NCBI RefSeq assembly: GCF_018129005.1
Contig: NZ_JAAEDL010000002.1
Coordinates: 77,897-141,896, forward strand
Length of the DNA: 64,000 bases
Reading direction: 5' to 3'
Origin: Neoroseomonas eburnea
GTDB lineage: Bacteria > Pseudomonadota > Alphaproteobacteria > Acetobacterales > Acetobacteraceae
Below are positions 2,308-58,001 of the stretch, one piece after another. Positions within the stretch are counted from its first letter, which is position 1, and every line of letters begins with the position of its first letter. A program made the position numbers and the translations under genes. The notes under the pieces are model-generated. The model did no database searches and was not told where the DNA came from. It worked only from the letters and a program-made list of their open reading frames with translations.

Positions 2308-3267
2308 ATGGCCGTGGTCTGGGGCATCCTCGCGCAGATCCTTCACCTCGCGCTGATCCTCGCCGCCGCGCCGGCGCTGACCGGCGTGGTGCGCTGGCTG
2401 AAGGCGCGGATGATGGGCCGGCAGGGGCCGCATCCGCTGCAGCCGCTGCGGGACCTCGTGAAGCTGCTGCGCAAGCGGCCGGTGCTGGCGGAGAACGCCT
2501 CCGCCGTCTCGCGCGCCGCGCCCTATGTCGCGGTCGGCGCGGCGGTGGCGGCGGCGGCGCTGGTGCCCTCCTTCGCCCGCGGCATGGCCTTCGCGCCGCT
2601 GGCCGACCTGATCCTGGTGGCGGGGCTGCTGGCGCTCGGGCGCGTCGCCATGGCGCTCGCCGGCATGGATGTCGGCACGCCCTTCGGCGGGCTCGGCGCG
2701 GCGCGGGAGATGAGCTTCGCGGCGCTCGCCGAACCCGCGCTGGTGGTGGCGGCGCTGACGCTCGCCATCCTCGCCGCCTCGACCAACCTCGATGCCATCG
2801 CCGGCGCCGTGCGCGACGGCGGGCTCGGGCTGCGCGTCTCGCTCGGCCTCGCGCTGGTCGCGCTGCTGGCGGTGGCGGTGGCCGAGAACGCCCGCATCCC
2901 GGTGGACAACCCGGCGACGCACCTGGAACTGACCATGGTGCACGAGGCGATGATCCTCGAAGCCTCCGGCCGGCACCTGGCGCTGTGGGACTATGCGGCC
3001 ATGCTGCGGCTGACGCTGTGGCTCGCCCTGCTGGCGGCGGTCTTCCTGCCGCTCGGCCTGGCGCCGCCGGGTGCTGCGCCGCACCATTGGATCCTCGGCC
3101 TGCTCGCCTGGGGGGTGAAGATGGCGGGGCTCGCCCTGGCGCTCGCCGCCTTCGAGAGCGCCATCGCCAAGATGCGCGTCTTCCGCGTGCCGGAATTCCT
3201 CGGCGCGGCGCTGCTGCTGGGGCTGCTCGGCGCCATCTTCCTCTTCGTCTCGACGGGGCTGACGTGA
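2308..3267 (+). CDS. HyfC/NuoH-like membrane subunit of the Hyf/Ehr complex
   Basis: 319-aa polytopic membrane protein immediately downstream of the HyfB-like gene, separated by 1 nt. Its architecture matches HycD/HyfC/NuoH. Confidence 0.75.
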   Translation: MAVVWGILAQILHLALILAAAPALTGVVRWLKARMMGRQGPHPLQPLRDLVKLLRKRPVLAENASAVSRAAPYVAVGAAVAAAALVPSFARGMAFAPLADLILVAGLLALGRVAMALAGMDVGTPFGGLGAAREMSFAALAEPALVVAALTLAILAASTNLDAIAGAVRDGGLGLRVSLGLALVALLAVAVAENARIPVDNPATHLELTMVHEAMILEASGRHLALWDYAAMLRLTLWLALLAAVFLPLGLAPPGAAPHHWILGLLAWGVKMAGLALALAAFESAIAKMRVFRVPEFLGAALLLGLLGAIFLFVSTGLT

Positions 3268-3932
3268 GCTTCGGGCAGCTCCCCTACGACGTCGCGCACC
3301 TGCTGGGCGGCGGCGTGCTGCTGTTCTCCTTCGTGCTGCTCTACCAGCGGCGGATCGGGGCGGTGATCAACGCCTTCGCGACGCAGGGCACGCTGCTGGC
3401 GATCGCCGCGGCCTGGCAGGGCTACGTGCAGGGGGCGCCGGGGCTCTACGTGACGGCGGTGCTGGCGCTGGCGGCCAAGGGCGTGCTGATCCCGCTCGCC
3501 CTGCACGCCATCGTCCGGCGGCTCGACCTGCACCGCACGGTGGAGACCGCGCTCGGCATCGGGCCGTCGCTGGTGGCGGGGGTGGGGCTGGTGGGGCTCG
3601 CGATCCTCGTCGTGCTGCCGGCGACCGAGGGCGCGCGCGCGCTGGCGCGGGAGGACCTCGCCCTCGCCCTGTCCGTCGTGCTGCTGGGCATGCTCATGAT
3701 GATCACGCGCCGCAACGCCATCAGCCAGGTGATCGGGCTGCTCAGTCTCGAGAACGGGCTGATCCTCGCCGCCATCGGCGTCGCCGGCATGCCGCTGGTG
3801 GTGGAGCTCTCCACCGCCGCGCTGGTGCTGATGGTCGCCGTCGTCGCCGGCGTCTTCGCCTTCCAGATCCGGGAGCGCTTCGACACGCTCGACACCGGCA
3901 GCCTGGAAGAACACCGCGGAGAGCGGCGCTGA
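3264..3932 (+). CDS. HyfE-like small membrane subunit
   Basis: GTG at 3264 overlaps the TGA of the upstream gene. About 222 aa, hydrophobic throughout (VSFGQLPYDVAHLLGGGVLLFSFVLLYQRR...). Position and size match HyfE. Confidence 0.55.
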   Translation: MSFGQLPYDVAHLLGGGVLLFSFVLLYQRRIGAVINAFATQGTLLAIAAAWQGYVQGAPGLYVTAVLALAAKGVLIPLALHAIVRRLDLHRTVETALGIGPSLVAGVGLVGLAILVVLPATEGARALAREDLALALSVVLLGMLMMITRRNAISQVIGLLSLENGLILAAIGVAGMPLVVELSTAALVLMVAVVAGVFAFQIRERFDTLDTGSLEEHRGERR

Positions 3933-5383: not shown

Positions 5384-5516
5384 GAAGGTCGGGGGAGGAG
5401 AACCTCCCCCGATCCCCCTCCCTTCCTTGTCCCTTGGGAACTGACTTCGGCTGTCAGTCCCCAGGTGCCAGAGAAGGTTGGGGGGTGCGGGGGGAAGTTC
5501 CCTTCCCCCCGACCTT
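5384..5516. repeat. Intergenic repeat family A, copy 1 (three-hairpin palindromic element, about 130 bp)
   Basis: The left arm gaaggtcgggggaggagaacctcccccgatccccctccc is an imperfect inverse of the right arm ggttggggggtgcggggggaagttcccttccccccgacctt. The central hairpin is gggaactgacttcggctgtcagtcccc. It sits between the hyfF-like stop and the large-subunit start. Three further copies are listed below. Confidence 0.8.
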
Positions 5517-8191: not shown

Positions 8192-9553
8192 ATGATGCGG
8201 AACGCAGCCTGGCGGACCGGCGCGGCGGCGAGCCTGCTGCTGAAGGCGGCTGTGGTGCTGGCGGTGCTCCTGGCGGCACTGCCGGCGCTCGCGCAGCAGC
8301 GCGTGGCGCTGGTGGTGGGCAACGGCGCCTACCGCGCCGTGCCGCGGCTCGCCAACCCCGCGGCGGATGCGGCGGCGATCGCCGGCGCGCTGCGGGCCGC
8401 GGGCTTCTCGACCGAGCTGGTGCGGGATTCCGCCAAGGACGGGATGGAAGCGGCGCTGCGCCGCTTCGGCGTGGCGGCGGAAGGCGCGGAACTCGCGGTC
8501 TTCTACTTCGCGGGGCACGGCATCCAGGTCGGCGGCGAGAACTATCTCCTGCCCGTGGATGCCCGGCTGTCCCATGCACGGGACGTGGATTTCGAGCTGA
8601 TCGGCCTGCCGGTCGTGACCCGGGCGATGCAGCCGGCGCGGGCGCGCGTGCTGATCCTCGATGCCTGCCGCGACAACCCGCTGGCGGCGCAGATGCGCGG
8701 GTTGTCCGGCACGCGTTCGGTCGGGCGGGGGCTCGCGCGGGTCGAGACGGTGGACCTCGGCACACTGATCGCATTCTCCACCAGCCCGGGGGCGGTGGCG
8801 CTGGACGGCACGGGGCGCAACAGCCCTTTCACCGCGGCGCTGGTGCAGCACATGGCGACGCCGGGCATCGAGATCCGGCAGTTGATGACGCGGGTGCGCC
8901 GCTCCGTGGTCGAGGCGACGGGCGGCCAGCAGGTGCCCTGGGACAACAGCAGCCTGATCACCGAGGTGGTGCTGCGGCCCGGGCGCGCCCCCGCCGCGCC
9001 GGCCCCGCCGCCGGTCGCCCTGGCGCCGCCGGCATCCCCCGTGCCGCAACCCACGCCGCAGCCCGCCCCGCGCGGCCGTGAGGCCACCATCGCTCCGACG
9101 GCCCCGGCCGTGCCGCTGCGTTTCGCGGCAGCCCGGCAGGTGGCGGCGAGCCAGGGCATTCCCCTGCCGGCCGACCTGCCGGCCGAGGCCGGCCGCGGTG
9201 CCCACCCCCTGCTCGGTGCCTGGGGCGGCACGCCGCGCTGGAACCGGACCGCGCGCGACTATCTGCTGATCGTCCTCGCCGTGGATGCGGCGGCCGGCTC
9301 GGCGGACATCCTGCTCGCGGCCGGCCATGGCACGACGCGCAGTTTCTCCGAAGGGCTGCAGCCAGGCTGGAGCCGCCACCGCGCGGCGCTGCGCGGCGAT
9401 TCCCTCATCTGGCAGGATGCCCTGGGCGACAGGTTCGAGGCCCGCCGCAGCGACTTCTTCGGCGAGGCGGTGGAGATCATCCACCGGCGGTCGGGCAGCG
9501 GCGGCCGCATCGTGAACGCCCAGGGGCAGATCGGGCTGGGCCGGATCGAATAG
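8192..9553 (+). CDS. Secreted caspase-family (peptidase C14) protein with a Pro-rich linker and an uncharacterised C-terminal domain
   Basis: The N-terminal signal/TM is AAASLLLKAAVVLAVLLAALPALAQQ. The caspase His-Cys dyad context is YFAGHGIQ and LILDACRDNP. Then comes a PAAPAPPPVALAPPASPVPQPTPQPAP linker followed by a domain of about 160 aa with no family I can name. Confidence 0.8.
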   Translation: MMRNAAWRTGAAASLLLKAAVVLAVLLAALPALAQQRVALVVGNGAYRAVPRLANPAADAAAIAGALRAAGFSTELVRDSAKDGMEAALRRFGVAAEGAELAVFYFAGHGIQVGGENYLLPVDARLSHARDVDFELIGLPVVTRAMQPARARVLILDACRDNPLAAQMRGLSGTRSVGRGLARVETVDLGTLIAFSTSPGAVALDGTGRNSPFTAALVQHMATPGIEIRQLMTRVRRSVVEATGGQQVPWDNSSLITEVVLRPGRAPAAPAPPPVALAPPASPVPQPTPQPAPRGREATIAPTAPAVPLRFAAARQVAASQGIPLPADLPAEAGRGAHPLLGAWGGTPRWNRTARDYLLIVLAVDAAAGSADILLAAGHGTTRSFSEGLQPGWSRHRAALRGDSLIWQDALGDRFEARRSDFFGEAVEIIHRRSGSGGRIVNAQGQIGLGRIE

Positions 9554-9583
9554 GTCGCCGCGTCATACCAACGGCCGCCATTT

Positions 9584-9685
9584 GCGACCGCTGGCATCCG
9601 CCCTTTCGTGCCCTGAGACGCCGGGCGCAAACCTCCGGTTTGCCTGGCTTCGCCGGACCACCGGCGGGCCGCATTCCGGATCCGC
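9584..9685. repeat. Intergenic repeat family C, copy 1 (about 100 bp)
   Basis: The segment gcgaccgctggcatccgccctttcgtgccctgagacgccgggcgcaaacctccggtttgcctggcttcgccggaccaccggcgggccgcattccggatccgc reappears inverted at 30827-30921 with about 90% identity. It contains a small hairpin caaacc-tcc-ggtttg. Confidence 0.6.
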
Positions 9686-9721
9686 GGTCACGCCGCAAGG
9701 CAACGCGACCGGTTGCCCGTC

Positions 9722-9765
9722 GCGGCCTCGGCACGAGTCAAGAACTCGTGCCGCCGGTATCAGAT
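9722..9765. repeat. Repeat family D, copy 1 (about 44-bp conserved terminator hairpin that also supplies the stop codon of the DUF1489 gene)
   Basis: gcggcctcggcacgagtcaagaactcgtgccgccggtatcaga. The stem is ggcacgagt / actcgtgcc. A near-identical copy lies at 34955-34997. Confidence 0.55.
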
Positions 9766-10197
9766 CAGGCAGAGCTCCGCCAGGTCCCGCCGCAGCTTCG
9801 GCGGCAGCCTGTCCAGCCCGCGGGCGGCAGGGCGTTCCAGCGCGACGTCCGGCGGCGCTTCCTCCGGCTTGAGGTAGCGCCAGCCCTGGAAGGGCTTCAT
9901 CGGGCGCGCCTCCACCGGCACCAGCGTCGGGTCGAGCACCAGCGCCGCGCAGGCGGTGCCGTCGTCCCATTCCTCCTCGCGGATCTCGAGGATGCGCTGG
10001 CGCACCCGGACGAAGCCGGCGACCACCCAGTAGATCGAGCCGCCGTCGGTGACCTCCTCGATCCGCTTGGGGAACATGCGGGTCCAGGCGCGCAGCGGCG
10101 GGTCGGTGCGCAGGCGCTCCTGCTGGATCGCCGCCAGCGCGGCGACGTCCTTGGGCCCGACGGAGAGCTTGATCAGGTGCAGCACGGCCCCCTGCAT
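9760..10197 (-). CDS. DUF1489 family protein
   Basis: MQGAVLHLIKLSVGPKDVAALAAIQQERL...GSIYWVVAGFVRVRQRILEIRE matches the conserved alphaproteobacterial DUF1489 pattern. Start chosen at ATG 10197; the ORF extends further upstream to 10329. Confidence 0.55.
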   Translation of the reverse strand: MQGAVLHLIKLSVGPKDVAALAAIQQERLRTDPPLRAWTRMFPKRIEEVTDGGSIYWVVAGFVRVRQRILEIREEEWDDGTACAALVLDPTLVPVEARPMKPFQGWRYLKPEEAPPDVALERPAARGLDRLPPKLRRDLAELCLI

Positions 10198-10312
10198 GTC
10201 GCGCCGCGGGCCGAGTCGGCAAGCCCCATCCGTCGCAACGCTTCGTAACCGGCCGCGACGCCCCGGCGAAGTCCCGGCAGGAGCGGTCTTCAGGGCCGCG
10301 CCGGAGACCCCG

Positions 10313-11060
10313 ATGGCCCGTCCCGACATCCCGGCCGAGCACCGCCCGCGCCTCTATCGCTCGGCGCGGGACACGCCGCTCGATATCGTCCGCGGCTGGC
10401 TGCAGGTCTCGGTCTTCGGCGCCCATGCGGTGGGCTCGGCCTTGGGCGCCTGGGGCATCCACGCCGCCCGGCGGCTGTCCAAAGCTTCGGGGCAGTTCCT
10501 CTTCCTCTCGGGCTTCGTGCCCGGCTCGGTCCACACGCTCAAGGCGCATCGGAACGAGGTCGGGGCAGCCGGGCGGGACCCGCGGCAGCGGGCCGGCCGG
10601 GCGTGGCTGACGCACCGCCTGCTGTTCTGCATGTTCGGGGCGCTGATCCTCCGGGCCAGGATGGCCCTGCCCCTGGCCTTAGAGACCGTTTGGAAAGTCC
10701 GTCACCGGTCCGCACCCCCACCCGGCCACCCACGTCAGTATGCTCGAATGGGTGACCGGGTGGGGGTGCGAGCCGGTGACGGACCCGGAAACGCGCCGCG
10801 AGGGGCGTTTCCAAACGGGCTCTTGGAGGTGGACCGGCTGCAATGGCGGATGCTGGCGGATGCCCCCTGGACGGCGCTGCTGCTCCACAGGCCGAATTAC
10901 CACGATATCCTGCCGGTCTTCGTCCTGTGCATGCTCGCCTTGCCCGGCTTCCTGTGGCGGGTGGAGCGGGCGGGCGCGGCGGCGTGGCCGACGGGGATTC
11001 GGCTCGGTTCCGCTGCCGAGCCATGCCGGCCTAGGATGCGCGCGCAATCGAACGGGCGCG
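10313..11060 (+). pseudogene. Remnant of an acyltransferase-3 (OafA/OpgC-like) membrane protein gene interrupted by the repeat-B MITE
   Basis: The N-terminal RDTPLDIVRGWLQVSVFGAHA...GQFLFLSGF resembles the acyltransferase-3 motifs (R-x-D-x-L-R-G and FFV-SGF). The frame reads straight through the 141-bp palindromic element at 10682-10822 and then stops making sense before the sigma-factor gene. The total length is far too short for an intact 10-TM acyltransferase. Confidence 0.3.
10682..10822. repeat. Repeat family B, copy 1 (about 140-bp large palindromic MITE-like element)
   Basis: gagaccgtttggaaa-gtccgtcaccggtccgcacccccacccggccaccc-[loop]-gggtgaccgggtgggggtgcgagccggtgacggac-...-tttccaaacgggctc. 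The arms are near-perfect reverse complements. The second copy is at 37245-37373. Confidence 0.75.
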
Positions 11061-11062
11061 CC

Positions 11063-11617
11063 GTGACGGCAGCACAGGACGGCCGGTGGGAAGCATGGAT
11101 GGCGGCGGCGCAGGCGGGGGACGCCCGCGCCTACGACCTGCTGCTGCGCGACTGCCTGCCCTTGCTGCGCGCCATCGCCCGCCGCCGTATCGCCGACCGG
11201 CACGAGGCCGAGGACGCGGTGCAGGACACGCTGCTCACCATCCATCGCATGCTCGCCGCCTACGACCCCGCCCGCCCCGCCCGCCCCTGGATCGCCGCCA
11301 TCGCCGAGCGCCGCTGCGTGGACCGCCTGCGCCGGCGCGGTCGCGGCGCCGGGCGGGAGACGCCGATCGACGACCATGCCGAGACCCTCGCCGCCCCGCC
11401 CGGCACGACGGGGGAGGACCGCATCGCCGGCCGCCAGTTGCGCGATGCCGTGGCGGAGCTGCCCGAGAGCCAGCGCACCGCGCTGCGCCTCGCGAAGCTC
11501 GAGGATCTGCCGCTGGCCGAGGCGGCCGCGCGGTCCGGCCTGTCGATCGGCGCGCTGAAGGTGGCGACGCACCGCGCGCTGAAGACGCTGCGCCGGCGCC
11601 TGGGCGGGGAGGAGTGA
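11063..11617 (+). CDS. ECF (sigma-70 family) RNA polymerase sigma factor, SigF-like
   Basis: Region 2 is [38 protein letters not shown]. Region 4 is [46 protein letters not shown]. The start is GTG 11063 (the alternative is ATG 11099). Confidence 0.85.
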
Positions 11618-11619
11618 CG

Positions 11620-12282
11620 ATGGAGACCGAGGAGCTGATCGGCCGCCTCACCGCCGGGCTCCGCCCCGTGCGGCGCCTGCCGCATCCGCTGCGCCGCGCG
11701 GCCACGTGGATCGGCTTCGCGCTGGCCGTGATCGCCGTCTTCGTCGCCGCCTTCGGCCCGCGCCAAGACCTGATGGAGCGCCTCCAACGGCCGCACGAGG
11801 TCGCGCAGCTCCTGTTCTGCCTGGCGACCGGCGTGCTGGCGGCGATCGCCGCCTTCGAGCTCTCCCTGCCCGACCGGTCCGCGCGCTGGGTGCTGCTGCC
11901 GCTGCCGGCGGCGGCGGCCTGGGTGGCGAGCCTCGGCATGGGCTGCCTCGCGGACATCGCGCGGATGGGGCCGCAGGCGCTGGTGTTCGGCGCCTCCTGG
12001 GGGTGCTTCCGATTCATCGTTCTGATGGGCGTGCCGCTGGCGCTCTCGCTGGTGTGGATGCTGCGCCATGCGGGGCCGATCCGGCCGGTGCCCGTTGCCG
12101 CCCTGGGCGGGCTCGCCGGCGCGGCGTTGAGCGCGGTCGGGCTGTCGATCTTCCACCACCTCGACGCCGCGCTGATGGTGCTGGCCTGGCATGGCGGCAC
12201 GACGCTGCTGGTGGTGGCGGGCTTCCTGCTCGCGGGGCGCGCCTGGGGCGCGCGGTCGATGCCGGGCTTCACGGCAGCTTAA
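11620..12282 (+). CDS. NrsF-family (DUF1109) membrane anti-sigma factor
   Basis: It begins 3 nt after the sigma-factor stop. 220 aa with six predicted TM helices and a conserved Cys pair ([25 protein letters not shown]). The gene order sigF-nrsF matches the Caulobacter heavy-metal stress module. Confidence 0.7.
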
Positions 12283-12335
12283 GGCGGTACCCGCAGGATG
12301 GCTCCGTCCATCCAGCCCGGGGGGGGTCCCGTCCC

Positions 12336-14657
12336 ATGCGTGCGTTCCTGAACCTGCCAGTCGGCCTCAAGCTAGGTGCATCGGGCCTCGTGGCCCTGCT
12401 GATGCTCGGCGGTATCATCAGCGCGATCCATGTCACCGGCACGACGGTGCAGGAACGTCTGCACGAGCAGGAGCGCGTCACCGAAGCGGGCGCGCTGCTG
12501 TCGAGCGCCTCCACCTCGGCCGCGGAAGCGCCTGTCCATGCATTGACACTGCGCGCCGCCAACACGGCCGAGGAGGTGGAATCCTCCCGCGCAGCGGCGC
12601 TCGCCGCGGTCGAGGCGGCGGCGCGTCTCGCCGGCGAGGCCGCCGGCAAGGTCGGCGACGCATCGGCCGCGCGGCTGATGACCGAGGTCGGCACGCGTGC
12701 CGAGGCCTACGGCGCGGCCGTGAGCGAGCTGGCGCAGCAGCGCCTGGCCATCCTGCGTGCGCGGGACGAGGTCTTCCTGCAGCGGTCGATGGAATACGAC
12801 CAGGCCTTCGAAGGCGCCAACGCCACCATCGAGTTCGACCTCACCGGCCCGACGCAGGAGGATGTCCGCAACCGCTTCGTGTCCTTCCACCAGGGCGTGA
12901 ACGACATGCGGGCCTCGGCGCTGCGCTACCTCGCCACCGGGGATACGCGGCAGGCGCAGCGCGCACGGCGCAGCCTTGCGCAGGCACGGGTGCATGTGCG
13001 CGGCGCCGTCTCCGCCGCGCAGGCGCATGCCCGGGTGAAGGAGGAGCTGGAACGCATCGCCCGGCTGGCCGACCAGGCCGGAGAGGGTGCGATCGCCGCG
13101 ATCGACACCGGAGCGGCACTGCACCGCTACGCCGAGGAGACGGGACGACCCGCGCGCGATGCCTTCGGCGCGGCAGTGACCGCGGCGAATGCACGGCTCA
13201 GGGAGCTCGACCGCGGCTCGGCGGCGGCGGTGACCAATGCGCTCTCGCACCAGTCGAGCATCGTGTTCGGCGTGGCCGGCGGCATCGCTCTGGTGCTGCT
13301 GCTCTCGGCCTGGGTGATGACGCGCGCGATCGGCACGCCGCTGCGCCGCCTTGCCGGCGCGATCGGCGGGATCGCCGAGGGCCGCAGCGACATCGAGGTG
13401 CCGGACCGCGGCCGCCGCGACGAGATCGGCCGCATCGCCGAGGCGCTGGAAGGGCTGCGCGGCAAGGTGGCGGAGGCCTTCAGCCGCAGCCAGATGATCG
13501 AGCAGTTGCCGATCGGCGTGGTGGTGGCCAACCCGAATGACGGCTTCCGCATTTCCTATGCCAATGCCTGCTCGCTGGATCTCGCGCGTGGCATGGAAAA
13601 GGACATGCGCGTGAAGCCGGAGGAGATCGTCGGGCAGGCCATCGACATCTTCTACGACCGGCCCGCCGAGGCGCGCGCCATCCTCGCCGACGCCACCCGC
13701 CTGCCGCACAAGTCGCGCGTGCGCATGGGGGCGGAGGTGCTGGACCTCAACGTCTCGGCGCTGCGCGATGCGGGCGGTGCCTACAGCGGCGCGATGCTGG
13801 CCTGGTCGCGCGTGACCGAGCAGGCGCGGCTCGCCGACACCTTCGAGGAGGAGGTCGGCGCCGTGGTCAATTCCGTGGCGGCCGCAGCGGGGCAGCTCCA
13901 GCATTCGGCGCGCGCGCTGACCGATGCGGCGGCCGAGGCCGGGCGCGAGGCGGTCGCGGTCTCCGAGGCCGGCGCGCAGGCCAATGCGGATGTGCAGGCG
14001 GTCGCCGCCGCGGCAGAGGAGATGGCGGCCTCGGTCGAGGAGATCACCCGTCGCGTCTCCGAGGCCGCCGAGGTTGCCCGCCGCGCCGTCGCCGAGGCCA
14101 AGGCGACCGATTCCACCGTGCGCGGACTGGCCGAGGCGGCATCGCGCATCGGCGACGTGGTGCGGCTGATCGGCGAGATCGCCGGGCAGACCAACCTGCT
14201 CGCGCTCAACGCCACGATCGAGGCGGCGCGTGCCGGCGAGGCCGGCAAGGGCTTCGCCGTGGTGGCGAGCGAGGTGAAGAACCTCGCCGGCCAGACCGCC
14301 AAGGCGACCGAGGAGATCGGCCGCCAGATCGCCGAGATGCAGGGCGCGACCACCCAGGCGGTGGAGGCGATCCGCGCCATCGGCACCACCGTGGACCGCA
14401 CCAGCGACATCGCCACCGCCATCGCCGCCGCGGTCGAGGAGCAGGGCGCCACCACGCGGGAGATCGCGCGCAGCGCCGCGCAGGTGGCGCAGGCCACCGA
14501 CACGGTCGCGCGCAAGATCGAGGGCATCCGCGCCGCGGCGGATTCCACCGGGGAATCGGCCGGGGCCGTGCTGCAGGCTTCCGGCGCGCTGTCCGGCGAT
14601 GCCGAGACACTGCGGGCGCGGGCCGACGGCTTCCTTCGCGCGGTACGGGTCGCCTGA
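12336..14657 (+). CDS. Methyl-accepting chemotaxis protein with periplasmic sensor, HAMP, PAS-like and MA signalling domains
   Basis: Two TM segments flank a periplasmic helical domain of about 260 aa. HAMP is [24 protein letters not shown]-like segment follows ([26 protein letters not shown]...). The conserved MCP signalling core is [31 protein letters not shown]. Confidence 0.9.
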
Positions 14658-14838: not shown

Positions 14839-15870
14839 ATGGGCTACCGGGTCGCGGTCGTCGGCGCCACCGGCGCGGTGGGGCGGGAGATGCTGAAGAC
14901 GCTCGCCGAGCGGAACTTCCCGGTGAGCGAGGTGGTCGCCCTGGCCTCCGGCCGTTCCGCGGGCGCCGAGGTCTCCTTCGGCGAGAAGACGGTGCTCAAG
15001 GTGCGGGACCTCGAGCGCTTCGATTTCACCGGCATGGATATCGGGCTGTTCTCGCCCGGCGCGGCGGTCTCCGCCGTGCATGCGCCGCGTGCGGCGGCCG
15101 CGGGATGCCTCGTGATCGACAATACCTCCCAATTCCGCATGGAACCCGGCGTGCCGCTGGTGGTGCCGGAGGTGAACCCGCATTCCATCGCCAGGCGGCC
15201 GAAGAAGGGGATCATCGCCAACCCCAACTGCTCGACCATCCAGATGGTGGTGGCGCTCAAGCCGCTGCACGACATCTCACGCGTGAAGCGCGTGGTGGTC
15301 GCGACCTACCAGTCGGTCTCCGGCGCGGGGAAGGAGGCGATGGACGAGCTGTGGTCCCAGACCCGCGGCGTCTTCGTCAACGACCCGCCGCTCGCGGAGC
15401 AGTTCACCAAGCCGATCGCCTTCAACGTCATCCCGCATATCGACCGCTTCATGGACGATGGCGCGACGAAGGAGGAATGGAAGATGGCGGTGGAGACACG
15501 GAAGATCCTCGACCCCGACATCCAGGTGATGGCGACCTGCGTGCGCGTGCCGGTGATGATCGGCCATGGCGAGGCCGTGCATGTGGAGTTCGAGAATCCG
15601 ATCACCGAGCGCCAGGCGCGCGAGGCGCTGCGCGACGCGCCGGGCATCACGCTGCTCGACAGCCGTGACGATGGCGGCTACGCGACGCCGCTCGAGATCG
15701 CCGGCGAGGATGCTGTGTTCGTATCGCGGCTGCGGCGCGACCCGACGGTGCCGAACGGGCTCGCCTTCTGGTGCGTGGCGGACAACCTGCGCAAGGGGGC
15801 GGCGCTGAACGCGGTGCAGATCGCGGAGGAAGTGCATCGGAACGGAAGCCTGAAGGTTGGGGGAGGGTGA
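14839..15870 (+). CDS. asd: Aspartate-semialdehyde dehydrogenase
   Basis: MGYRVAVVGATGAVGREMLKTLAERNFP...IANPNCSTIQMVVALKPL...ATYQSVSGAGK are canonical Asd motifs. Confidence 0.95.
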   Translation: MGYRVAVVGATGAVGREMLKTLAERNFPVSEVVALASGRSAGAEVSFGEKTVLKVRDLERFDFTGMDIGLFSPGAAVSAVHAPRAAAAGCLVIDNTSQFRMEPGVPLVVPEVNPHSIARRPKKGIIANPNCSTIQMVVALKPLHDISRVKRVVVATYQSVSGAGKEAMDELWSQTRGVFVNDPPLAEQFTKPIAFNVIPHIDRFMDDGATKEEWKMAVETRKILDPDIQVMATCVRVPVMIGHGEAVHVEFENPITERQAREALRDAPGITLLDSRDDGGYATPLEIAGEDAVFVSRLRRDPTVPNGLAFWCVADNLRKGAALNAVQIAEEVHRNGSLKVGGG

Positions 15871-15980
15871 ACCTCCCCCAGACCCCCTCCCTTTTCTGGC
15901 TTCTGGGAACTGACATCGGAAGTCAGCTCCCAAAGGACAAAAAAAGGAGGGGGACCGGGGGAGTTCACTCCCCCGGCCTT
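15852..15980. repeat. Repeat family A, copy 2
   Basis: gaaggttgggggagggtgaacctcccccagaccccctccc ... gggaactgacatcggaagtcagctccc ... ggagggggaccgggggagttcactcccccggcctt. It overlaps the last 19 nt of asd and the stop of the convergent DMT transporter gene. Confidence 0.75.
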
Positions 15981-30826: not shown

Positions 30827-30921
30827 GCGGATTCGGGCCGCGGGTGGTCCGGCGAAGCCAAGCAAACCGGAGGTTTGCGCCCGGCGCCTGAGGGCACGAA
30901 ACGGCCGATGCCAGCGGTCGC
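30827..30921. repeat. Repeat family C, copy 2 (inverted relative to copy 1)
   Basis: It is the reverse complement of 9584-9685 with a few mismatches. It lies between the convergent pap and SPFH genes, directly abutting repeat A copy 3. Confidence 0.6.
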
Positions 30922-30939
30922 GAAGAGCGGCCGTTGGCA

Positions 30940-31069
30940 TGAGGTCGGGGGAGGAGAACCTCCCCCGATCCCCCTCCCTTCCTTGTCGGGGCGCATCGCC
31001 GATGGCGATGCGCAAGGATCCCAAAGAAGGTTGGGGGGTTCGGGGGGAAGTTCCCTTCCCCCCGACCTT
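30940..31069. repeat. Repeat family A, copy 3
   Basis: gaggtcgggggaggagaacctcccccgatccccctccc ... gcgcatcgccgatggcgatgcgc (a perfect 10-bp-arm central hairpin) ... ggttggggggttcggggggaagttcccttccccccgacctt. Confidence 0.8.
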
Positions 31070-34088: not shown

Positions 34089-34214
34089 AAGGTCGGGGGA
34101 GGAGAACCTCCCCCGAACCCCCCCTCCCTTCTTTGGTGTCTCTTGCGCATCGCCGCAGGCGATGCGCCCGGACAGAAGAAGGAGGGGGTTTGGGGGAGTT
34201 CACTCCCCCAACCT
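34089..34214. repeat. Repeat family A, copy 4
   Basis: gaaggtcgggggaggagaacctcccccgaaccccccctccc ... gcgcatcgccgcaggcgatgcgc ... ggagggggtttgggggagttcactcccccaacctt. It overlaps the 3' end of nfi by about 15 nt. Confidence 0.75.
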
Positions 34215-34886: not shown

Positions 34887-34954
34887 GCCCCGAGCCTGCC
34901 ACGCGGCGCGGCGCCTCAGAACCCGCTTGAGGATGCCGGCACCGGCCCGCATTC

Positions 34955-34997
34955 GCGGCCTCGGCACGAGTCATTGACTCGTGCCGCTGGTATCAGA
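34955..34997. repeat. Repeat family D, copy 2 (conserved terminator hairpin that supplies the stop codon of the OMP gene)
   Basis: gcggcctcggcacgagtcattgactcgtgccgctggtatcaga. In both copies the TCA in ggtatcaga is the minus-strand stop codon of the upstream gene. Confidence 0.55.
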
Positions 34998-37167: not shown

Positions 37168-37186
37168 TGATGTTATATTATAACGC
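37168..37186 (-). promoter_or_regulatory. Candidate Zur box overlapping the promoter of the ZnuA-like/OMP operon
   Basis: tgatGTTATAtTATAACgc is a 6-1-6 AT-rich palindrome 14-32 nt upstream of the ATG. It resembles alphaproteobacterial Zur operators. The surrounding DNA is about 70% GC, so this AT-rich palindrome stands out. Confidence 0.5.
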
Positions 37187-37244
37187 TATCTCTGCCTACC
37201 GATCTGCACAAGACCACCCTTGTCAGTTCAGTCAGCGATCGTTT

Positions 37245-37373
37245 GAGACTGCCCGCACCAGCCCCCCCGCGCCGGGCCAGCCATCCAGGATGCTGTCGCC
37301 GGTTGGCCGGGTGGGGGTGCGGGCCGGTGCCGGACCCCAAAACGCGCCGCGAGGCGCGTTTCCAAACGGTCTC
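37245..37373. repeat. Repeat family B, copy 2 (partially deleted left arm)
   Basis: gagact-gcccgcaccagcccccccgcgccgggccagcc...ggttggccgggtgggggtgcgggccggtgccggacc-ccaaaacgcgccgcgaggcgcgtttccaaacggtctc. The right half is about 90% identical to copy 1 and the left arm is shortened. Confidence 0.65.
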
Positions 37374-38126
37374 TCAGCCCTTGCCGAAGAGGCGCCGCAG
37401 CCAGCCGATCAGACCGCCGGCGGCGGGGTCCCTGCGCTGGTGCGTCACATGCGGCCGGCGCGCCGGCGGCGGCAGGGCGCTCGCCACGGTGTGGCGGCCA
37501 GCGTCATGCGCGGCGATCAGCCGGCGCTCGAGCGCGATGACCTGGCTGACCGCCTCGGACGGAGAGATACCGGCGAGTTCGGCCGCGGTGGCCTCCGCAT
37601 CCTGCCACGCCTCGGCGCGGCGGAGCGCGTCCACCACGCGGACCGTCTGCTCGGCATCGAGCGCCGGGCCGCTGCGCCACAGCGCCACGGCTTCCTGCCG
37701 CCAGGCGCTGGCAAGGTCAGCCCGGCCCGCATCGTCGGCCACCCAGGCCGCCTGCAGCGTGGCCTCGGCCGCGGCGTGCAGCGCGCCGGTCTCCTCCAGC
37801 ACCAGGGCCCAGGCGAGGAAGCGCCGGGCGAGCGGCGGATGGGAGGCATCGCGCAGCAGCGCGCGAAACGGCGCGGCGGAGACGGCGGCGGCGGCGGCCG
37901 GATGCGCCTTGGCGATCGACGGCGCCGCGTAGCCGCAATGCGGGCATTGCTGCAGCCAGCGCGCCATGGTGGAGCGGACCGGCTCGCCCGGCCGCAGGTC
38001 GAGGTCCGGCGCCTGTTCGGGCGGCGGCGGGCGGAACGGGGCCTGGCGGCTCTCGCGCCCGCAGACGCCGCAGGTCGATTGGCCGGCGGCGGCGGAACGG
38101 GACGAGGTGGAAGGCGTCTCTGCCAT
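37374..38126 (-). CDS. Hypothetical protein with N-terminal zinc-ribbon (CGVCG...CPHCGY) and C-terminal Ala-rich helical domain
   Basis: 250 aa with a C-x2-C ... C-x2-C pair near the N-terminus. No recognisable catalytic motif. Its 3' end abuts repeat B copy 2. Confidence 0.45.
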   Translation of the reverse strand: MAETPSTSSRSAAAGQSTCGVCGRESRQAPFRPPPPEQAPDLDLRPGEPVRSTMARWLQQCPHCGYAAPSIAKAHPAAAAAVSAAPFRALLRDASHPPLARRFLAWALVLEETGALHAAAEATLQAAWVADDAGRADLASAWRQEAVALWRSGPALDAEQTVRVVDALRRAEAWQDAEATAAELAGISPSEAVSQVIALERRLIAAHDAGRHTVASALPPPARRPHVTHQRRDPAAGGLIGWLRRLFGKG

Positions 38127-57489: not shown

Positions 57490-58001
57490 TGAACGCACCA
57501 TGGAGGCGCGCACCTGCGCCGACCCCGGAAGTCTCGTCGCCGATGACCGAGACGGACAAGACCGACGAAAAGAGGAAACGCAAGCGCGCGCAGCAAAGGG
57601 AGTGGGCGCGAAAGAAGCGGGCTGTCGACCCCGAGAGGTTCCGGGAGGCGTACCGGCGATGGTTGGCCGCGAACCCTGAAAAGGCTCGTGAAGCGACACG
57701 TCGCTGGCAAGCGGCGAATCCAGACAAGGCACTCGCAAACGAGGTGCTGCGACGCGAGCAAAACAGGGAGAAACTGGCCGCCGATGCCGCCGCGCGCAGG
57801 AAAGCGGATCCAGAGAAATATCGTGAAGCTGCGCGCAAGTACCGCGCCGAACATCGAGAAGAGCTGGCCGCCGCAGCAGCTGCGCGACGGAGAGCCGATC
57901 CAGAAAAGTATCGTGAGGCTGTGCGCAGGTACCGCGCCGAAAACAAAGAAAAACTGGCCGAGCAACGGCGCGTGCGCCGTGCTGCAAAAAAGGCTGAGTA
58001 G
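57489..58001 (+). CDS. Highly charged tandem-repeat protein (K/R/E-rich, about 29-aa repeats)
   Basis: The unit RRKADPEKYREAARKYRAEHREELAAAAAA is followed by the near-identical unit RRRADPEKYREAVRRYRAENKEKLAEQRR, preceded by three degenerate copies (DPERFREAYRRW, NPEKAREATRRW, NPDKALANEV). At the DNA level it is a direct repeat of about 87 bp twice at 57790-57965. Confidence 0.5.
   Translation: MNAPWRRAPAPTPEVSSPMTETDKTDEKRKRKRAQQREWARKKRAVDPERFREAYRRWLAANPEKAREATRRWQAANPDKALANEVLRREQNREKLAADAAARRKADPEKYREAARKYRAEHREELAAAAAARRRADPEKYREAVRRYRAENKEKLAEQRRVRRAAKKAE

Follow-up and report, generated by a model that had tools for sequence, protein, structure and literature searches.

Upstream of sigF, the gene of an extracytoplasmic function (ECF) sigma factor in Neoroseomonas eburnea, lies a nested palindrome of 141 nt, named c1, at positions 10682-10822 of the stretch analysed here (64 kb of contig NZ_JAAEDL010000002.1, positions 77,897 to 141,896; called the window in the following). 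The gene order at this locus in N. soli (L121), Roseomonas sp. PWR1 (L125) and a Logan assembly (L122) is DUF1489 beside opgC, followed by the ECF sigma factor gene, nrsF and a gene of a methyl-accepting chemotaxis protein (MCP). In the window, c1 interrupts opgC, with which the conserved opgC-sigF-nrsF cluster starts, at about codon 122. A second copy, c2, is located in the spacer between a gene for a 250-aa protein and a znuA-like gene. The DUF1489 protein of the window proved 100 % identical to its counterpart in N. eburnea, and the ZnuA protein to the one of 'Roseomonas eburnea'. Both copies are insertions, and very probably they belong to a family of miniature inverted-repeat transposable elements (MITEs) with terminal inverted repeats (TIRs). 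The features are collected in Table 1.

Table 1. Positions of the features at the sigF-nrsF locus and at the second insertion site, in window coordinates.
Feature	Position	Strand	Basis
SigmaF-type promoter motif GTAACC-N16-CGAA, 43 nt upstream of the start codon of the opgC remnant	10245..10270	+	Sole exact match in 64 kb; conserved in relatives
opgC remnant, 5' piece, first 122 codons to the target-site duplication	10313..10678	+	Pfam OpgC_C PF10129; tblastn with N. soli OpgC, 1e-78
Left target-site duplication of c1, TTA	10679..10681		Net insertion relative to N. soli 144 nt = 141 + 3
MITE copy c1, 141 nt: left TIR, long hairpin arms, loop (10733-10748), small hairpin, right TIR	10682..10822		Fold, inverted repeats, empty orthologous sites
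Right target-site duplication of c1, TTG (1 mismatch to TTA)	10823..10825		Junction alignment
opgC remnant, 3' piece to about codon 181 of the orthologue, then deletion junction; stop codon lost	10826..11035	+	tblastn, nucleotide alignment
ECF sigma factor gene (sigF-like), start uncertain: 11036, 11063 or 11099	11036..11617	+	Pfam Sigma70_r2, Sigma70_r4_2
nrsF anti-sigma factor gene	11614..12282	+	Pfam NrsF PF06532, 2.5e-31
Left target-site duplication of c2, TCA	37232..37234		Junction comparison
MITE copy c2, 139 nt; right half intact, left arm decayed, left TIR degraded (GCGATCGTTTGAGAC)	37235..37373		Alignment to c1, empty orthologous sites L136, L138
Right target-site duplication of c2, TCA; serves the 250-aa gene as stop codon (TGA, minus strand)	37374..37376	-	Junction comparison

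Relative to the orthologous loci, for which metagenomic relatives were included, c1 and c2 are both insertions. The site of c1 is empty in L121, L122 and L125: these relatives read ...gccctgcccctgcc/gggggaggtggacc..., the window reads ...cccctggccTTA, 141 nt, TTGgaggtggacc..., a net gain of 144 nt. At the c2 site, empty in L138 and in a second locus of Roseomonas sp. PWR1 (L136), the spacer between the 250-aa gene and znuA measured 73-76 nt versus 219 nt in the window. The junctions of c2, read on the minus strand as GGC TGA/GAGACC...GATCGC/TGA CTG, contain an exact 3-bp duplication, the first TGA being the stop codon of the upstream gene. Target-site duplications are thus of the 3-bp type T-N-A, exact at c2 (TCA/TCA) and with the pair TTA/TTG at c1, next to 10682 and 10822 where an earlier interpretation of the letters and reading frames of the window (the sequence-only reading) had pointed for such duplications. 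Further family copies carried exact duplications (TTA/TTA in L062, TGA/TGA in L065, TCA/TCA in L001 and L006), and the TIRs were perfect or nearly so in L018, L062 and L065.

The outer inverted repeat of c1, GAGACCGTTTGGAAA (10682-10696) and TTTCCAAACGGGCTC (10808-10822), is complementary in 13 of 15 positions. It is followed inwards by a hairpin with 36-nt arms (10697-10732 and 10749-10784, 92 % complementary) and a loop of 16 nt, and a small second hairpin is formed by 10787-10812. The element has no coding capacity of its own and is almost all hairpin (141 nt; c2 has 139 nt). As single-stranded DNA a folding energy of -68 kcal/mol was predicted (z = -10.9, equalled by none of 200 shuffles), as RNA -113.9 kcal/mol (z = -10.6). 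The near-perfect large palindrome that the sequence-only reading had described at 10682-10822 was borne out in its limits, its arms and its fold. The core motif CCGGGTGGGGGTGCGNNCCGGTG occurred three times in the window, with 0.02 occurrences expected by chance; the third is part of c2. An independent sequencing run of the same strain (Logan SRR10985188, L120) contained the identical c1 sequence, hence c1 is not a one-off assembly artefact; the contig of this run breaks inside the hairpin. The G-rich right core arm GGGTGRCCGGGTGGGGGTGCGGG, e.g., at 10749-10775, has four tracts of three or more G with short loops, a canonical G-quadruplex motif, and the opposite arm is C-rich.

The right half of c2 is 89 % identical to c1, while the left arm accumulated many substitutions and indels, and the fold is no better than that of shuffled sequences (z = -1.3). 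A second copy with a degraded left arm had been proposed at 37245-37373; existence and degradation stood, but the start had to be moved to 37235. Just upstream of znuA, an AT-rich palindrome GTTATA(N)TATAAC at 37172-37184 is kept in all relatives (L136, L137, L138) and resembles a Zur box; c2 was inserted upstream of this putative box and left the palindrome undisturbed. In L137 (2819-3000) the same spacer has taken up another sequence, about 106 nt long and without relation to the element; the spacer may be an insertion hotspot.

The opgC gene of the window is a pseudogene, split by the element and truncated at the 3' end. The match to Pfam OpgC_C (PF10129) covered profile positions 1-163 of 358 and scored 63.2 bits without and 56.0 bits with the element. 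In a tblastn search with OpgC of N. soli, residues 1-181 of 378 aligned (1e-78), with the element between residues 121 and 124; residues 182-378 are absent in the window, and intact orthologues have 373-378 aa. According to the nucleotide alignment, a 3' deletion of about 590 bp took the stop codon of opgC as well, and homology restarts in the spacer before sigF. Due to the loss of the 3' half together with the stop codon the gene is dead, and the frame from 10313 is open into sigF because the deletion removed the stop codon of opgC. Element and duplication together have 144 nt, so the frame was kept by chance. The open frame at 10313-11617 (522 apparent codons) consists of dead opgC, MITE and sigF read together. 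A branch omega of about 0.67 for opgC of the window versus 0.17 for N. soli and 0.41 for PWR1, derived from pairwise Nei-Gojobori values, reflects relaxed constraint. A homologue search with the OpgC fragment had as its only match the merged gene call of the same strain (P0001), in which one gene caller joined the part after the element to sigF. The sequence-only reading had noticed an open reading frame (ORF) with acyltransferase-3-like motifs (RDTPLDIVRGW..., FLFLSGF) that runs through the element; motifs and read-through are present, the tblastn search with an intact protein identified the frame as a fragment of the OpgC family, which we take to belong to the acyltransferase-3 clan, and no intact ORF of normal length exists in the region. 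Its two options were a gene disrupted by the insertion or a MITE in a decaying gene. The latter holds; the insertion is no more than a possible cause of gene death, as the 3' deletion was at least as damaging. The closest relative found (L129-L131, about 3111-3420; DUF1489 94 % identical) underwent an independent, nearly total deletion of opgC that spared the promoter, about 12 codons and the stop codon, and two metagenomic relatives (L123 and L124) lack the entire opgC-sigF-nrsF block. Thus opgC is dispensable at this locus and was lost repeatedly. Dating of the pseudogene by a deletion junction shared with L129 was rejected, since the breakpoints of the two deletions differ.

Dispersed copies, the absence of which would have contradicted the sequence-only reading, were abundant: a scan of one genome per species for the exact 21-base core motif detected at least 119 loci, and the window itself holds two copies. 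Because an exact match was required in one arm, the apparent conservation is biased there, but not in the other arm or at positions outside the motif. Among the matches listed, 33 of the first 80 were situated within about 130 nt of a contig end, as is typical of an assembly-breaking repeat. Complete hairpins were present, among these matches, in isolates of Roseomonas alba, Neoroseomonas lacus, N. oryzicola, Belnapia mucosa, four Sphingomonas species and Citromicrobium, and copies also occurred in many metagenome-assembled genomes (MAGs) of Acetobacteraceae and sphingomonads. From the matches listed, 77 complete hairpins were extracted. The stem of about 36 bp was nearly invariant across 31 bp; the outer 4-5 stem pairs vary yet stay paired, e.g., GC in 24 and AT in 17 copies at one position, and position 17 of the stem showed a compensated switch (A:T in 50 versus T:A in 11 copies). 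The top of the core hairpin has a conserved asymmetric internal loop. This core of about 78 nt (GCACCGGCCCGCACCCCCACCCGGCCACCCA - loop - TGGGTGGCCGGGTGGGGGTGCGGGCCGGTGC) recurs in Acetobacteraceae and Sphingomonadales within shells that have different ends; isolates of Sphingomonas and Neoroseomonas share identical core arms in spite of their different shells. Copies of Roseomonas and Neoroseomonas have GAGACCGTTTGRAAA ends and T-N-A duplications; those of sphingomonads and some Acetobacteraceae MAGs have other GAG...CTC ends and are flanked by TA within CTAG. Of 66 testable copies, 11 had the canonical arrangement T(N)A-GAG...CTC-T(N)A on both sides, compared with 0-1 of about 60 in offset controls. 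The small second hairpin was observed on one side or the other, with a lineage-specific sequence and often a GNRA-like loop, and in 12 Roseomonas-type copies inspected by eye the loop had either orientation relative to the shell (6 versus 6). The same GAGMCYGTTTGA ends with TCA-type flanks surrounded unrelated interiors of 82 nt (L115:2539-2620), 163 nt (L109:1447-1609) and 143 nt (L126:2506-2648, which is Roseomonas plasmid NZ_CP024587.1, 59693-59835), hence ends and core hairpin are separable modules. In the Acetobacteraceae MAG clean365 (L041, L042, L049, L035), tandem truncated left arms with a period of about 38 nt (AAGTCCGGCACCGGCCCGCACCCCCAC + ATGCTTAC..) precede a complete hairpin, which suggests repeated self-targeted insertion or slippage.

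The family is scattered beside unrelated genes, mostly just past stop codons. When flanking genes were called by codon-position GC, 58 gene 3' ends and 30 gene 5' ends faced the element; where both sides were called, 11 arrangements were convergent, 12 tandem and 3 divergent. Stop codons were typically 10-50 nt away from the hairpin. Translations of 80 flanking genes matched 111 Pfam families without enrichment of any; the 25 most frequent included no transposase, RAYT (REP-associated tyrosine transposase; REP, repetitive extragenic palindromic sequence) or integrase. Only c1 was seen in a reading frame, that of a pseudogene; the other examined copies, about 77, are intergenic. Rfam had no relevant match at E <= 1 over positions 9000-12500 of the window, and in 18 copy-bearing loci its sole match at the gathering score was a tRNA that does not overlap an element copy. 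The core-motif scan of viral contigs gave 0 matches. A BLAST search of plasmids with the whole element found only two weak sphingomonad matches in unannotated DNA; with the TIR end it yielded mostly noise at E of about 9. When three of these matches were followed up, those in Cereibacter and Rhizobium had only one end and no insertion sequence (IS), and the one in Roseomonas turned out to be a MITE with the same ends and a different cargo. No description of this repeat family was found in the literature searched by keywords and sequence strings; the family is apparently undescribed, and it is widespread.

With high confidence we regard c1 and c2 as MITE copies, i.e., as a non-coding DNA transposon of about 140 bp that was presumably moved in trans by a DDE transposase recognising the GAGMCCGTTTGRAAA ends and that duplicates a 3-bp T-N-A target. 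TIRs, target-site duplications, empty orthologous sites and many copies elsewhere agree with the label MITE-like in the sequence-only reading, and the element shows every MITE feature tested, the identification of a partner IS excepted. In the proposed course of events, the DDE transposase would recognise the ends in trans and insert the element at T-N-A; the central hairpin would be a separable module carried in shells whose ends differ by lineage, and arm-to-arm correction or selection for the hairpin would preserve the similarity of its two arms. A transposase similar to the IS5 family (IS1031/IS427-type) is our guess from the TA or TNA duplications and the end shape G-R-G...GTT..GA, given that the searches revealed no autonomous element whose ends match. 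The IS1031 and IS427 groups produce 2-3 bp duplications of TA or TNA and have ends starting with GA or GG; in line with these properties, Roseomonas-type shells have TNA duplications, sphingomonad-type shells TA within CTAG, and all ends start with GAG. An IS5-family element on plasmid NZ_CP024587.1 has TA-flanked ends (GGGCCTGTTGAC / GGGTCCGTTGAC) that are like the MITE ends in pattern, not identical; its end GGGYCYGTTGAC has the same pattern as the MITE end GAGMCCGTTTGA in a different sequence. Searches of all loci for TIR pairs 0.7-2.5 kb apart and of six-frame translations of 776 kb for an IS5-type DDE motif (D[KR]GYD...Y..R..E) gave no match.

Several observations weigh against the MITE interpretation. 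An autonomous element with matching ends was found neither in the window, nor in the 776 kb of fetched loci, nor on plasmid NZ_CP024587.1. About 40 of 66 core copies have no recognisable GAG...CTC shell, and the interior is more conserved than the ends, unlike a classic MITE with conserved ends, a pattern that the plain MITE model leaves unexplained. At c1 the duplication is imperfect (TTA/TTG), insertion and deletion in opgC may have happened in either order, and transcription through c1 is predicted from one promoter motif and from synteny. The local event is ordinary, a MITE in a decaying gene; its only unusual aspect is the hairpin conserved across orders in interchangeable shells. The core arms, identical in isolates of two alphaproteobacterial orders, look more conserved than we would expect under neutrality for lineages so far apart. 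A somewhat far-reaching explanation, to which we assign a low probability, is that the core hairpin is an ancient, sequence-constrained module in its own right. Carried in shells with different ends and with its loop in both orientations relative to them, such a module would speak for more than selfish spread by a DDE transposase: a host protein, or else an unrecognised recombinase or nuclease specific for hairpins, would act on it as a conserved partner.

A related and still less probable explanation takes the core hairpin as the real unit, a doublet of the REPIN type (REP doublet forming a hairpin) spread by a hairpin-recognising single-strand transposase such as RAYT, with the GAG...CTC shells as secondary additions. 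The size of the core is REPIN-like, the conserved asymmetric internal loop, the identity of the arms in Sphingomonas and Neoroseomonas within different shells and the many copies without recognisable shell would fit, as would the independence of loop and shell orientation and the clustering at gene 3' ends, which is known from REPs. However, the inserted unit at both sites of the window was the whole shell plus a 3-bp duplication, and the movement of REPs or REPINs leaves none. The HUH...Y(x)2NP signature was absent from the six-frame translations of the 776 kb around 77 copies, a search that could miss a single-copy gene elsewhere. A Y1 transposase was not among the 25 most frequent Pfam families of the flanking genes, and a GTAG-type REP head was not present. 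This leaves the REPIN/RAYT origin as a minority possibility for the core alone.

The position of c1 in front of sigF raises the question of a regulatory role. The consensus bound by sigmaF, GTAACC-N16-CGAA, is known from Caulobacter, where the stress that induces sigmaF is chromate or cadmium (PMC3511200). The window contains a single exact match, with 0 matches expected by chance, and the motif is kept in all relatives that retain the locus (L121, L122, L125, L129). With this motif conserved upstream of opgC, opgC-sigF-nrsF looks like an autoregulated unit, which implies an OpgC-family gene as a putative member of the sigmaF regulon in this clade. The sequence-only reading had considered the element as a source of promoter sequence for sigF, a suggestion that found no support: within 10150-11150 a sigma-70-like promoter was not detected, and transcription would start at the predicted sigmaF promoter in front of opgC and pass through the element instead of starting from it. 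Probably c1 is part of the transcribed leader of sigF-nrsF, where the transcript may form a very stable hairpin that possibly lowers downstream expression. A function of c1 as intrinsic transcription terminator was ruled out, as no GC-rich hairpin with U-tract was detected in 10150-11150 on either strand. The proposal that element or core was co-opted as a structured RNA or DNA signal, at this locus as an RNase III site, attenuator or mRNA stabiliser in the leader, would be in line with the location between the conserved promoter and sigF, the RNA folding energy of c1, the second hairpin that keeps its shape and GNRA-like loops with differing sequences across lineages, the compensatory changes in the stem and its variable yet paired base. 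We consider it improbable. The same cluster works in relatives without the element at the locus, and c2 has lost its fold, therefore individual copies are not maintained. Further, neither a U-tract terminator nor an Rfam match was found, the neighbour genes of the copies are mutually unrelated, and a palindrome can also acquire covariation through correction of one arm by the other, with no RNA function involved.

Hardly credible is an in-frame insertion comparable to Rickettsia palindromic elements (RPEs), with the element adding 47-48 residues to the translated product and 10313-11617 encoding a membrane-anchored fusion of the OpgC remnant to SigF. The 144 nt of element and duplication are 48 stop-free codons, the frame has no stop from the ATG of the opgC remnant into sigF, and P0001 merges the part after the element with sigF. 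But a frame is kept by chance in one of three insertions, stops are rare at about 72 % GC, and other frames across the element are open, too. The OpgC part is under relaxed constraint without its residues 182-378, the other examined copies are intergenic, and the orthologous sigma factors stand alone in gene calls of 172-195 aa. A retron msr-msd was rejected, with no reverse transcriptase near c1 (flanked by the opgC remnant, sigF, nrsF and DUF1489) and with many copies, unlike a retron.

Other repeats were observed in the window. The sequence TCAGAACCCGCTTGAGGATGCCGGCACCGGCCCGCA at 34916-34951 resembles the truncated left end of a third copy (TIR and first 16 nt of the arm); an 11-nt direct repeat, TCAGAACCCGC, is met again at 34994, where a minus-strand gene has its stop codon. 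A separate G/C-rich repeat family with GGGGGAGG..CCTCCCCC hairpins has four copies in the window (5386-5484, 15855-15953, 30942-30987 and 34090-34135). A third family consists of an inverted pair of 112 nt, 89 % complementary, at 9563-9674 and 30831-30942, of which one copy separates DUF1489 from the gene that ends at 9553 and the other abuts the G/C-rich copy at 30942. Two tandem 90-nt units at 57753-57932, 74 % identical, may be a repeat within a coding region.

Recognition of the element explains the odd ORF upstream of sigF and is useful for the annotation of Neoroseomonas genomes, where gene callers merge the pieces as in P0001; it also shows that relatives have sigF-nrsF downstream of opgC and of a sigmaF-type promoter. 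The family breaks short-read assemblies in Acetobacteraceae and Sphingomonadales. A conserved core in interchangeable shells is unusual for a MITE and could reveal the capture of palindromic modules or what fixes a hairpin sequence across orders.

Among known systems, MITEs derived from IS5-family elements (IS1031/IS427-type) share the size of about 120-145 bp, the lack of coding capacity, the GAG...CTC ends, the TA or TNA duplications, and dispersed copies present in one relative and absent in another. They differ in that here no partner IS with matching ends was found and the interior hairpin surpasses the ends in conservation, being common to shells with different ends across two orders. 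The Correia elements of Neisseria are likewise palindromic, about 100-155 bp long, with TIRs and a small TA-containing duplication; they occur in hundreds of intergenic copies and are often co-transcribed with neighbouring genes, forming hairpins. Sequence and host group are unrelated, and promoter creation, an integration host factor (IHF) site or RNase III processing are without evidence in the family described here. REP and REPIN sequences with their RAYT resemble it in the long hairpin, whose two conserved arms are inverted and whose loop varies more than the conserved stem, the high copy number and the preference for gene 3' ends, whereas the copies in the window have outer TIRs and target duplications, no GTAG head was present, and no RAYT signature was detected near 77 copies. 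RPEs are also palindromic repeats of about 100-150 bp in Alphaproteobacteria, and c1 shares with them the in-frame position inside an ORF; they are typically translated within functional genes, while the host gene of c1 is truncated and the other examined copies are intergenic. The mosaic repeats of Rhizobiaceae (RIME, Rhizobium-specific intergenic mosaic element) and enterobacteria (BIME, bacterial interspersed mosaic element) similarly combine a large palindrome with smaller palindromic modules in either order and orientation, but in other sequences and hosts, and TIR and target-site duplication signatures are not described for those families.

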